Of a stretch of 64,000 nucleotides of DNA, positions 170 to 59,054 are shown piece after piece. The stretch comes from Escherichia phage LorandFenyves_Bas91. Both the position numbers and the translations under genes were made by a program. Every line of letters begins with the position of its first letter. Within the stretch, counting starts at the first letter, position 1. The stretch lies in the sequence record PQ850614.1, one strand, 5' to 3'. The notes beneath the pieces are model-generated. The model searched no databases, was not told the origin of the DNA, and saw nothing but the letters and a program-made list of their open reading frames with translations.

Positions 170-388
170 ATGAAAATGATGAAACAAGCTGCATATGGTT
201 TAATCTGTTTAGGTGCAGGTGTTGTGGTGTCAACCGCAGTTCCTGTAAGCGCAGTTCATCCACTAGTAACTGTCCCTGCTCCAGTAGAGAAGCTTAGCTC
301 TCAATGCAAGCAGAGAACAATTCAAAATAACCTAGTTGTTATTTGTCCTGATGCTGAATCTAACGCTCTAAGAAAGATACTACCTTAA
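170..388 (+). CDS. small membrane/secreted protein, possibly lysis-associated
   Basis: ATG with GGAG upstream; N-terminal hydrophobic segment; immediately precedes the endolysin gene. Confidence 0.4.
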   Translation: MKMMKQAAYGLICLGAGVVVSTAVPVSAVHPLVTVPAPVEKLSSQCKQRTIQNNLVVICPDAESNALRKILP

Positions 389-417: not shown

Positions 418-909
418 ATGGATAACGTCGCATTGCCACCTGTACAATTAAACTTAAGCCCAGCTGGAATGGAATTCATCATGAAGCATGAGGGTATGAG
501 AACAAAGGCTTATAAAGATTCCGCAGGTATCTGGACTATATGTGTAGGGGCTACGCGCGATATGAATGGTTATCCGGTTAGACAAGGATTAACGTATTCT
601 ATAGAGGATTGTCTAGCTCTGCTAGATAGAGACACACAAGACTCTGTTCGTGCTACTCAGAAGAACATAAAGGTTCCTTTACTAGTTCATGAGTTTGATG
701 CACTCACTTCTTTCAACTTCAACGTTGGCAGTGGTGCTTTGAGCACATCTAAGTTAAGGAAAGTAATCAATGGAGATGTTAAGGGAGACGTTTATTCCGA
801 ATTTCTTCGTTGGGATAAAATAACGGTCAAGGGAGAGAAGCAGAGAAGTCAGGGTCTTCATAATAGAAGAGTTGCAGAAGCTAATCTTTACACCGAAGGT
901 AAATATTAA
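418..909 (+). CDS. endolysin, GH24 (T4-lysozyme-like) muramidase
   Basis: AAAGGAGG RBS; HEG...AYKDSAGIWTICVG matches the E/D/T catalytic arrangement of T4-type lysozymes. Confidence 0.85.
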   Translation: MDNVALPPVQLNLSPAGMEFIMKHEGMRTKAYKDSAGIWTICVGATRDMNGYPVRQGLTYSIEDCLALLDRDTQDSVRATQKNIKVPLLVHEFDALTSFNFNVGSGALSTSKLRKVINGDVKGDVYSEFLRWDKITVKGEKQRSQGLHNRRVAEANLYTEGKY

Positions 910-11328: not shown

Positions 11329-11337
11329 TAATGTATA
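11329..11337 (+). promoter_or_regulatory. TAATGTATA motif (candidate phage-sigma-dependent promoter element)
   Basis: Exact 9-mer about 39 nt upstream of the probable start at 11376; the same 9-mer recurs upstream of other genes. Confidence 0.5.
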
Positions 11338-18314: not shown

Positions 18315-19800
<1,486 letters not shown>

Positions 19801-19801
<1 letters not shown>

Positions 19802-20061
19802 TATTTTATTCCACGTTCTTTCAGAGCTTCTAACAATCCATTGTGATTGGCAGCACATTCTGTGTACTGGTCCTGATACCACTCCAACGTAGTGGCTAGT
19901 GCTTTTCCTTGAGCACTTTCTAAAAGAGGTAGGTCAACCCTACATTCAGCTTTTAGGTTTGTTGGTAAGGGCATTGATTGCCTGCTGTTGTCGCTCATTG
20001 AACAAGCTGACAAACTCATCGCTAGCGCAGACATTATAAAAAACTGGTTTAGTTTTCTCAT
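19801..20061 (-). CDS. lipoprotein, candidate outer-membrane spanin
   Basis: Internal ATG gives MRKLNQFFIMSALAMSLSAC (signal peptide plus LSAC lipobox); reading frame overlaps the 3' part of the next gene. Confidence 0.45.
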
Positions 20062-20296
20062 AATGCATCTCTTTATAAATAGTTTCCGTGTTCTTCTTCC
20101 AGTTAGATAAACCGGTAAGAACCCTCTGAGCAACTTCATCAGCTGCCCTACTTCTTTCAATCTCTAACTCTTGCTGGTGCTTCTCTTTGTCCAGATTACT
20201 GCTGTCTGTTTGGTACTCGTTAAACTTCATACCACCAAAGAATACAAGAGCTGAGAAAACGATAAACCCTAAGTTATCACTTAATGTGTTTTGCAT
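19946..20296 (-). CDS. candidate inner-membrane spanin (N-terminal TMD plus periplasmic helical domain)
   Basis: ATG at 20296 just past the terminator; LGFIVFSALVFFGG TMD then charged helical region; overlapped by the lipoprotein ORF. Confidence 0.45.
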   Translation of the reverse strand: MQNTLSDNLGFIVFSALVFFGGMKFNEYQTDSSNLDKEKHQQELEIERSRAADEVAQRVLTGLSNWKKNTETIYKEMHYEKTKPVFYNVCASDEFVSLFNERQQQAINALTNKPKS

Positions 20297-20304
20297 GTTG
20301 TCTC

Positions 20305-20332
20305 CAACGAAAAAAGCCACCCGGAGGTGGCT
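20305..20332 (-). terminator. intrinsic terminator after the SSB gene
   Basis: AGCCACC-CGGA-GGTGGCT hairpin followed on the minus strand by TTTTTT. Confidence 0.6.
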
Positions 20333-20353
20333 AAGCTATAACAAGGAGAGTTA

Positions 20354-21100
20354 TTAGAACGGGCTAGAGTCGTCATCTTCATAAGTAGAAGCTGGTTCTT
20401 TGTCAATCGTAGGGATTGAAGGAGTAGCTTCTTTCTGCTCTGTTTCAGAAGCACGAGTAATTTCACGACCAGCCAGAGGCATGTTCTTAGCGTCATTAGC
20501 TTGAGTAAGCAGGTTGCGCTGGAACGGGAACATCAGTTGATAGGATGCTACGTTCTCATCGGTTTCAGCATACGGTTCGAAAAATACCAGAGGGCTACGA
20601 GCTTCACCAACTGCTGCACGATATTTGGTTGGGATTGGAGAAATGGTTTTGATGGAGTTTTTAACTTCACCAGCTTTGTTAGTGTAAGAGTTAACCAGAA
20701 TGTTAACAGGCTGACCTAACAGCACATCCTTGAACCAAGACAGATCACCTTTCAGTGCTTGAATACTTGGGTCAATCATCTTGCAAAGATCAAGAATACC
20801 AGAGTTCTTAGCTCGTGGGTTTACATCATAACTCTTGAACTGGCAAGCCGGACGTGGTTCTAATGCCTTACCATCGGAATCTTTACCAGTAGCATCAACA
20901 CCAATCAGCTCGAAAGCCAAATCCATACGGAAAGCCGGATTCTTAGGAGTTACTGCTTTGGTCTTCGGGTCAATCCAAGGGTCACGATTGTGAACACCCA
21001 AACCTACTACACGAACGATACGTGCTTCGTATTCACCATCAGGGATTACATCGTAGTTGGATTTACGGGAAGCAGTTGCGATAGTTGGAATCATAGACAT
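20354..21100 (-). CDS. single-stranded DNA-binding protein
   Basis: 248 aa ending in the acidic tail EDDDSSPF (acidic C-terminus ending in Phe, as in SSB and T7 gp2.5). Confidence 0.6.
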   Translation of the reverse strand: MSMIPTIATASRKSNYDVIPDGEYEARIVRVVGLGVHNRDPWIDPKTKAVTPKNPAFRMDLAFELIGVDATGKDSDGKALEPRPACQFKSYDVNPRAKNSGILDLCKMIDPSIQALKGDLSWFKDVLLGQPVNILVNSYTNKAGEVKNSIKTISPIPTKYRAAVGEARSPLVFFEPYAETDENVASYQLMFPFQRNLLTQANDAKNMPLAGREITRASETEQKEATPSIPTIDKEPASTYEDDDSSPF

Positions 21101-21159: not shown

Positions 21160-21168
21160 TATACATTA
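21160..21168 (-). promoter_or_regulatory. TAATGTATA motif upstream of SSB
   Basis: Exact 9-mer on the minus strand ~60 nt upstream of the SSB start; a near-copy faces it on the plus strand. Confidence 0.45.
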
Positions 21169-21231: not shown

Positions 21232-21240
21232 TAATGTATA
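21232..21240 (+). promoter_or_regulatory. TAATGTATA motif, plus orientation (antisense to neighbouring genes)
   Basis: Exact 9-mer in the 400-bp AT-rich intergenic region upstream of SSB. Confidence 0.35.
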
Positions 21241-27704: not shown

Positions 27705-27713
27705 TATACATTA
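27705..27713 (-). promoter_or_regulatory. TAATGTATA motif
   Basis: Exact 9-mer on the minus strand ~40 nt upstream of the 27668 start. Confidence 0.5.
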
Positions 27714-59045: not shown

Positions 59046-59054
59046 TATACATTA
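59046..59054 (-). promoter_or_regulatory. TAATGTATA motif at the upstream edge of the ORF-free region
   Basis: Exact 9-mer on the minus strand. Confidence 0.4.

Follow-up and report, generated by a model that had tools for sequence, protein, structure and literature searches.

An overlapped gene pair far from the holin and endolysin genes of Escherichia phage LorandFenyves_Bas91 is very probably a two-component spanin of the phiEco32 type

The closest described counterpart of the locus analysed here is that of phage phiEco32, whose entry in SpaninDB (Kongari et al. 2018, PMC6139136) reads 'Phieco32 ovl -1 35417 35768 35272 35533 ... 116'. The same survey places PhiEco32 in the 15-member 'JH2' family of i-spanins and in a four-member o-spanin group (NJ01, ECBP2, KBNP1711 and PhiEco32), and its tables give the phiEco32 i-spanin a helix content of 61% and no Pepcoil coiled coil. 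Two other arrangements described there are relevant to this locus: the T4 spanins pseT.3/pseT.2 are unlinked to holin and endolysin, and spanin genes that overlap in T5 are separated in Shivani and phiR201 by a gene for a GIY-YIG homing endonuclease. In the phiEco32 genome itself the late genes form a rightward cluster and the early and middle genes a leftward one, with the genes for DNA polymerase, nucleotide metabolism and the sigma factor in its middle part, and six promoters dependent on gp36, the phage sigma factor (consensus tAATGTAtA), have been mapped upstream of genes 6, 13, 26, 40, 58 and 68 (PMC8948821, PMC4331800).

Within the window (the whole 64,000-nucleotide stretch that was analysed), the 1.6 kb around the pair are 97.8% identical at the nucleotide level to phiEco32 and 95-98% identical to dozens of other Kuravirus (Gordonclarkvirinae) phages. 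Genes follow the phiEco32 order phi32_40-39-38-37-36, which are annotated there as a 248-aa protein of unlabelled function, an 'Rz-like spanin', a 57-aa hypothetical protein, an Appr-1-p processing/macro domain protein and an RNA polymerase sigma factor, respectively. Once the offset of 15472 nt between the phiEco32 record and the window is subtracted, the SpaninDB boundaries of the phiEco32 pair fall on window positions 20296, 20061 and 19801, with the same overlap. The pair is thus the same locus as phi32_39/phi32_38: the i-spanins are 97% and the o-spanins 96.5% identical, and the 351-nt i-gene, the 116-nt overlap, the Shine-Dalgarno sequence, the hairpin upstream and the neighbours (gene 40 on one side, the macro-domain and sigma factor genes on the other) are all shared. 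The differences amount to a few amino-acid substitutions, such as LSAC here in place of MSAC in phiEco32.

Annotations of other relatives point the same way. In phage Paul, annotated by the Center for Phage Technology, the i-spanin has a transmembrane domain at residues 8-23 and the o-spanin a LipoP SpII cleavage site at 19/20; ShigP1 carries explicit i-spanin and o-spanin labels at the homologous site, and o-spanin labels also occur in IMEP8 and VTCCBPA_211. The published announcement of the Paul genome says nothing of lysis genes. The Shine-Dalgarno sequence of the i-spanin gene is identical to the one given for KBNP1711 (Kongari et al. 2018 table, PMC6139136). The sequence-only reading, which took these genes for an overlapped inner/outer-membrane spanin pair, agrees both with this earlier curation and with the sequence-level features that could be tested; the pair was already known and catalogued, and the observation is correct but ordinary. 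We consider it very probable that the pair encodes the two-component spanin of the phage, a Kuravirus podophage of the phiEco32-like kind. Coordinates of the pair, of its presumed expression signals and of the lysis genes are collected in Table 1.

Table 1. Positions in the window of the overlapped gene pair, nearby expression signals and the lysis genes.
Feature	Position	Strand	Details and evidence
Holin-family gene	170..388	plus	phrog_11161 holin, E 4.8e-50
Endolysin gene, T4-lysozyme-type muramidase fold family	418..909	plus	Phage_lysozyme PF00959, E 3.7e-32; phrog_7, E 4e-46
o-spanin gene, full-length version of phi32_38	19801..20061	minus	ATG start, 86 aa
Overlap of i- and o-spanin genes	19946..20061	minus	116 nt, by coordinates
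i-spanin gene, phi32_39 homolog	19946..20296	minus	ATG start, 116 aa, 351 nt
Shine-Dalgarno region of i-spanin gene, TTGGAGACAAC then ATG	20297..20305	minus	sequence; RBS annotated in Paul
Terminator-like hairpin, AGCCACC-TCCG-GGTGGCT then TTTTTT	20309..20332	minus	pattern scan; terminator annotated there in Paul
Promoter motif, exact TAATGTATA	21160..21168	minus	motif search; consensus of gp36-dependent middle/late promoters; the gene-40 homolog (20354-21100) begins about 60 nt downstream

The two genes have the layout of the overlapped class of spanins: they are adjacent, and the o-gene starts inside the i-gene in another reading frame and ends beyond it. This is the layout that had been noticed for a lipoprotein frame with the lipobox LSAC. 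The o-gene opens with an ATG 235 nt from the start of the i-gene, uses the +1 frame and runs on for 145 nt past the i-gene stop, so that the overlap contains the C-terminal 38 codons of the i-spanin together with the +1-frame codons for the o-spanin signal peptide and the first mature residues. The o-gene ends in a TAA whose final A also opens the ATG of the macro-domain gene that follows (PF01661, E 8e-11). The Shine-Dalgarno sequence before the o-gene start is weak (AAAGAGATGCATT then ATG).

The product of the i-gene starts MQNTLSDNLGFIVFSALVFFGGMKFNEYQ, and its most hydrophobic 15-residue window, with a Kyte-Doolittle mean of 2.2, comprises residues 9-23 (LGFIVFSALVFFGGM), which bears out the N-terminal transmembrane domain proposed from the letters; both genes lie on the minus strand, which had not been given. 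The remaining 85-90 residues are polar, 31% of them charged, and include a single cysteine, Cys89 (NVCASD). The N-terminus preceding the helix (MQNTLSDN) is net negative and a lysine follows the helix, so the positive-inside rule lends no support to an N-in/C-out topology; a negative i-spanin N-terminus was likewise flagged for NJ01 by Kongari et al. (2018 table, PMC6139136). A single-sequence AF2 model has helices at residues 4-20, 34-76 and 83-111, with low confidence (mean pLDDT 55.7), and the C-terminal domain is predicted to be periplasmic and mostly helical. The protein matches PHROG 1152, 'Rz-like spanin' (phrog_1152, E 3.9e-37), and tblastn recovers its family from 412 phage records; these include FelixO1-like myophages in which an i-spanin and an overlapping o-spanin are annotated and whose i-spanins are 31-32% identical to the one here.

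The product of the o-gene starts MRKLNQFFIMSALAMSLSAC, followed by SMSDN, and has the elements of a PROSITE PS51257-type lipoprotein signal: a positive n-region, an uncharged h-region and the lipobox LSAC ending in Cys20. The lipobox that had been noticed thus bears up under prediction, and its Paul homolog is annotated with a LipoP SpII score of 18.0. The signal peptide is 19 residues long (MRKLNQFFIMSALAMSLSA) and is followed by Cys20 with serine at +2. A residue other than aspartate at +2 leads to outer-membrane sorting by Lol, and because this residue is serine, the o-spanin would be sent to the outer membrane. Its mature domain of 67 residues contains two further cysteines and three prolines. 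At least one periplasmic cysteine, for intermolecular disulfide bonds, is present in 507 of 528 two-component spanin systems, and such residues are found on both sides here: one in the C-terminal domain of the i-spanin and, apart from the lipidated cysteine, two in the mature o-spanin. The o-protein matches phrog_2425, an unnamed family labelled 'unknown function' (E 2.8e-26), and more weakly phrog_456, 'Rz-like spanin' (E 0.002), and it occurs in 108 records, including Proteus phages and the annotated O-spanin of Yersinia phage P778. Neither protein gave anything above threshold in Pfam and NCBIfam scans, neither matched a defence-system model (PADLOC), and a PDB sequence search found no relative.

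A lipobox pattern does not by itself identify a lipoprotein gene, and we rejected it as stand-alone evidence: the window holds three open reading frames with such a pattern, shuffled 64-kb copies hold about two each, and one of the three real matches is a homolog of a cytoplasmic COOH-NH2 ligase. The same background rate would fit the alternative that only the 116-aa membrane protein is real and that the lipoprotein frame is a chance frame with a chance lipobox, or is unexpressed. This alternative also draws on the weak Shine-Dalgarno sequence before ATG 20061 and on the many GenBank records that annotate only a 57-aa frame lacking the signal peptide, but it is at odds with the way in which the sequence varies among relatives. 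In an alignment of the pair from the window and 11 relatives, the variable sites of the i-only part are distributed 47/25/12 over i-frame codon positions 3/1/2 (chi-square p = 1e-5), and those of the 145-nt o-only stretch 38/19/6 over positions 3/1/2 of the o frame (chi-square p = 4e-6). Pairwise Nei-Gojobori estimates for the o-only stretch, from four relatives of intermediate divergence (L009, L010, L014 and L015), give a pN of 0.09-0.18 against a pS of 0.73-0.83 in the o frame, whereas in the other two frames pN is about equal to or greater than pS. For the i-spanin, pN/pS is 0.03-0.28.

Within the overlap the density of variable sites is half that of the rest of the pair (19% vs 39%, Fisher p = 5e-5), as expected where two constraints are superimposed. 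There the constraint falls on the i frame (pN 0.03-0.04, pS 0.28-0.42); the changes are taken up by the o frame (pN > pS), whose codons in this part specify the signal peptide. The start methionine, the lipobox cysteine and both other cysteines of the o-protein, along with the cysteine of the i-protein, are kept in 15/15 relatives examined, and the overlapped lipoprotein persists even in an 88-kb contig from IMG/VR, where the identity of the i-spanin is down to 48%. Judged by these substitution patterns, both frames are under purifying selection. It is for its conservation across relatives, and not for its lipobox pattern, that we take the lipoprotein frame to be a real gene, and the o-spanin frame is the only credible lipoprotein frame in the 64 kb.

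A natural experiment in three relatives also speaks against a chance frame. In KM01, E20-1 and AnnaHegner_Bas87, an HNH endonuclease gene (phrog_99, E 5e-57 in KM01 and 2e-44 in Bas87) stands in place of the former overlap; in KM01 the insertion measures about 530 bp, and an 18-nt stretch is found on both of its flanks. The i-spanins split in this way are homologous to the one here and have a diverged C-terminus with a stop of their own (FNQRQKEAERVLKSKE or FNERQQQAAEALKLKN vs FNERQQQAINALTNKPKS). The corresponding o-spanins keep the lipobox and the mature domain and have a different n/h-region (HIKKKLLSCTGILLAFSLSAC or MLTKKKQKSCLVILLASSLMAC), supplied by the 3' end of the HNH gene read in a second frame. 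Wherever the HNH gene has removed the old signal peptide, a new one with a lipobox has thus taken its place, and together with the substitution pattern this leaves the chance-frame explanation extremely unlikely.

In Bas87 the i-spanin coding sequence is annotated as joined across the insertion, and a group I intron was considered for KM01, E20-1 and Bas87. We rejected it: no Rfam intron is found there at E values up to 1, the split i-spanin has its own stop, and farther downstream the o-spanin begins with a start codon and a signal peptide that belong to it. The sequence instead argues for a free-standing endonuclease gene with a target duplication. SU10-type phages have a different HNH gene, located between gene 40 and the i-spanin gene. 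The split pairs show the same kind of event as that described for T5 and Shivani/phiR201, with an endonuclease gene between i- and o-spanin; they differ in that the endonuclease of KM01, E20-1 and Bas87 is of the HNH type, and in the window the pair is overlapped and unbroken. The HNH split adds a new case to a phenomenon already known, and as evidence from nature for a need of the lipoprotein it is good.

The pair lies 18.9 kb from the endolysin gene and on the opposite strand. Downstream of the endolysin, in which no N-terminal membrane signal is evident, the plus strand continues with tail and structural genes, and there is no contiguous holin-endolysin-spanin late cassette of the lambda type. 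The sequence-only reading had placed the pair in an early/middle module far from the endolysin: this position stands, but the anomaly that it implied does not, since such a location is normal and published for Kuravirus and has a precedent in T4.

By the phiEco32 gene order, gene 40 lies on one side of the pair and the sigma factor gene on the other, which places the pair in the P40 transcription unit, and the P40-type promoter TAATGTATA likely feeds transcripts to the spanin genes. The pair may be counted as middle class, an assignment made for the cluster as a whole from secondary descriptions of phiEco32 rather than from gene-level data. Between the stop codon of the gene-40 homolog and the Shine-Dalgarno sequence of the i-spanin gene lies the terminator-like hairpin, which ends about 5 nt before the latter and has a predicted RNA folding energy of -19.5 kcal/mol (z -3.2). 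Because there is no room for a promoter between the hairpin and the i-spanin gene, read-through would set the level of the spanin, macro-domain and sigma factor genes, which is probably lower than that of gene 40. With this hairpin directly upstream of the i-spanin gene, the level and timing of spanin expression are uncertain. A predicted fold also pairs GGAGA of the Shine-Dalgarno sequence with an upstream CUCUCC, an observation to which we give little weight.

The location of the pair, beside host-takeover and replication genes instead of holin and endolysin, would also suit a different function, in which a membrane protein and a lipoprotein act in mid-infection in superinfection exclusion or receptor masking, in the manner of T5 Llp or Cor, and the outer membrane is broken by other means. 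The family of the o-component, phrog_2425, carries no functional label that would contradict this, and our literature search turned up no experimental test for members of these i- and o-spanin families. However, the i-protein family is annotated as spanin in unrelated phage groups, Kuravirus and FelixO1-like phages among them, and in every case a lipoprotein gene overlaps its gene, and the o-component matches the P778 O-spanin and, weakly, phrog_456. The strict pairing of the two genes persists despite the HNH insertion, the conserved periplasmic cysteines follow a pattern typical of two-component spanins, and the spanins of T4 likewise lie outside the lysis cassette. Nor is there any other spanin candidate, either adjoining the endolysin gene or elsewhere in the 64-kb window. 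On this evidence we regard a role outside lysis as very unlikely and retain the spanin assignment.

The architecture and signals of the pair suggest that it would disrupt the outer membrane at lysis, by a mechanism that we model on lambda Rz/Rz1 (summarised in PMC6139136). The pair would be transcribed leftward in the middle cluster, from the P40-type promoter and/or by upstream early transcripts, through the hairpin and together with the macro-domain and phage sigma factor genes. The i-spanin would sit in the inner membrane in N-in/C-out orientation with its C-terminal domain in the periplasm. In the o-spanin, Cys20 would receive the lipid and signal peptidase II would remove the signal peptide, after which Lol would carry the protein to the outer membrane. 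The C-terminal regions of the two proteins would bind each other across the periplasm, and the conserved cysteines, a single one in the i-spanin and a pair in the o-spanin, may form the disulfides of homodimers. Such complexes would remain inert within the peptidoglycan mesh until the holin releases the endolysin, and after degradation of the murein they would complete lysis by fusion or disruption of the two membranes. Because peptidoglycan breakdown is needed for their action, synthesis of the spanins ahead of the late lysis genes would be harmless.

The unlinked position in the middle cluster implies that spanins need no co-regulation with holin and endolysin, as already documented for T4 and for this phage group. 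One can go further and suppose that Kuravirus spanins are truly middle-class, made well ahead of holin and endolysin by way of read-through at the hairpin and along with the phage sigma factor gene, with attenuation rather than the late lysis programme setting their dosage and timing, and that the 116-nt overlap is a recurrent target of HNH homing, which has turned overlapped pairs into separated ones whose o-spanin signal peptide comes from the 3' end of the endonuclease gene; to us the case for this combined reading is evenly balanced. Both of its parts extend known themes, namely the unlinked spanins of T4 and the GIY-YIG genes in the T5/Shivani comparison. The practical yield concerns annotation: many GenBank/RefSeq records of phiEco32-like phages present the o-spanin as a 57-aa hypothetical protein without signal peptide, or omit it, and confirmation of the full 86-aa lipoprotein frame aids the annotation of Kuravirus genomes for phage therapy, with little consequence beyond annotation.

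Compared with the best-known spanins, the pair resembles lambda Rz/Rz1 in combining a predicted type II inner-membrane protein with a small lipoprotein of the outer membrane, for which the same DNA is read in the +1 frame, in having periplasmic cysteines in both proteins and in an expected action that follows those of holin and endolysin. It has no detectable sequence similarity to Rz/Rz1, and it differs in architecture: Rz1 is fully embedded in Rz, whereas the o-gene here passes the end of the i-gene, an overlapped arrangement like that of P2 lysB/lysC. The mature o-spanin, with 3 Pro in 67 aa, lacks a penta-proline stretch, and the lambda genes lie in the late lysis cassette, whereas the pair here is about 19 kb from holin and endolysin on the other strand. 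The T4 proteins pseT.3/pseT.2 belong to other sequence families, are encoded in a separated architecture and include an i-spanin without a periplasmic cysteine, but they come close to the present pair in size, at 117 and 83 aa compared with 116 and 86 aa.

In addition to the promoter motif upstream of the homolog of phi32_40 (gene 40), the gp36 promoter consensus TAATGTATA has four further exact copies in the window, one of which, at 21232 (+), shares the same intergenic region and points in the opposite direction. With up to one mismatch allowed, the window contains 20 copies and shuffled sequence 19.5; because this is no excess, only copies that are both exact and well placed are taken as meaningful. 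The gene-40 homolog has a gp36-type promoter of its own as well as a terminator, as would be expected of a highly expressed gene. Its product ends in an acidic tail (...TYEDDDSSPF), which resembles the C-terminal tips of single-stranded-DNA-binding proteins; the E. coli SSB ends in ...DDDIPF. Between this gene and the i-spanin gene lies a strong terminator-like hairpin, which may, by attenuation, leave the genes for the spanins, the macro-domain protein and the sigma factor less expressed than gene 40, and the predicted fold also pairs the i-spanin Shine-Dalgarno sequence GGAGA with an upstream CUCUCC at ~20345-20349. Further downstream, a sigma-70-like promoter match that falls in the 3'-terminal part of the macro-domain gene, a short distance before the sigma factor gene (18694-19341), could allow first expression of the phage sigma factor to depend on host RNA polymerase.

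Features in the window and in loci of relatives (L-numbers; coordinates are positions within each locus)
Feature	Location	Strand	Details
Sigma-70-like promoter match	window 19360-19389	-	TGGACA, 18-nt spacer, TATAAT; 11/12
Exact consensus copy	window 21232-21240	+	
Exact consensus copy	window 11329-11337	+	
Exact consensus copy	window 27705-27713	-	
Exact consensus copy	window 59046-59054	-	
Gene-40 homolog	window 20354-21100	-	248 aa; phrog_6599 (unknown function)
Strong terminator-like hairpin and T-run	window 20309-20332	-	directly 5' of i-spanin Shine-Dalgarno
57-aa version of o-spanin	window 19801-19974	-	
57-aa version of o-spanin	L003 4002-4175		
57-aa version of o-spanin	L004 1002-1175		
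57-aa version of o-spanin	L014 1588-1761		
Overlapped spanin locus	L012 2477-2978		IMG/VR contig IMGVR_UViG_3300013023_000001, 87,959 bp
HNH endonuclease gene, phrog_959	L004 1556-1969		SU10; between gene-40 homolog and i-spanin
HNH homing endonuclease gene	L005 1089-1627		KM01; i/o-spanin overlap site
HNH homing endonuclease gene	L006 1157-1615		E20-1; i/o-spanin overlap site
HNH homing endonuclease gene	L013 1128-1478		AnnaHegner_Bas87; i/o-spanin overlap site

In many GenBank and RefSeq records, including those of phiEco32 (phi32_38), SU10 and IME267, Met30 is taken as the start of the o-spanin, which is thereby listed as a hypothetical protein of 57 aa without signal peptide or lipobox. 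Separately, product names of genes near the locus are off by one in the KM01 record.

The more distant relative (L012), whose i-spanin is 48% identical to that of the window, still carries a homolog of gene 40, the spanin pair in its overlapped form and the gene for the sigma factor. Other small genes replace the macro-domain gene, and two additional ORFs lie in the interval from gene 40 to the i-spanin. That same interval holds an HNH gene in SU10, as opposed to the hairpin alone in the window; judged by alignment length, phages CHD5UKE1, FH3 and 1-6af carry the same insertion.

A distinct HNH gene separates the spanin pair of KM01, E20-1 and AnnaHegner_Bas87 at the site where the two genes overlap in the window. 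The Bas87 record joins its "Rz-like spanin" CDS over this gene in the style of an intron (Bas87_0030, L013 655-1547), but this is probably an artefact of the annotation, since Rfam detects no group I intron and the ORF upstream of the HNH gene ends at its own stop. In all three phages, the i-spanin has a diverged C-terminus and keeps its own stop, and the lipobox and mature domain of the o-spanin are preserved behind a new signal-peptide N-terminus, encoded in another frame by the 3'-terminal part of the HNH gene. The arrangement is analogous to the T5/Shivani case, in which the endonuclease is of the GIY-YIG type (Kongari 2018).
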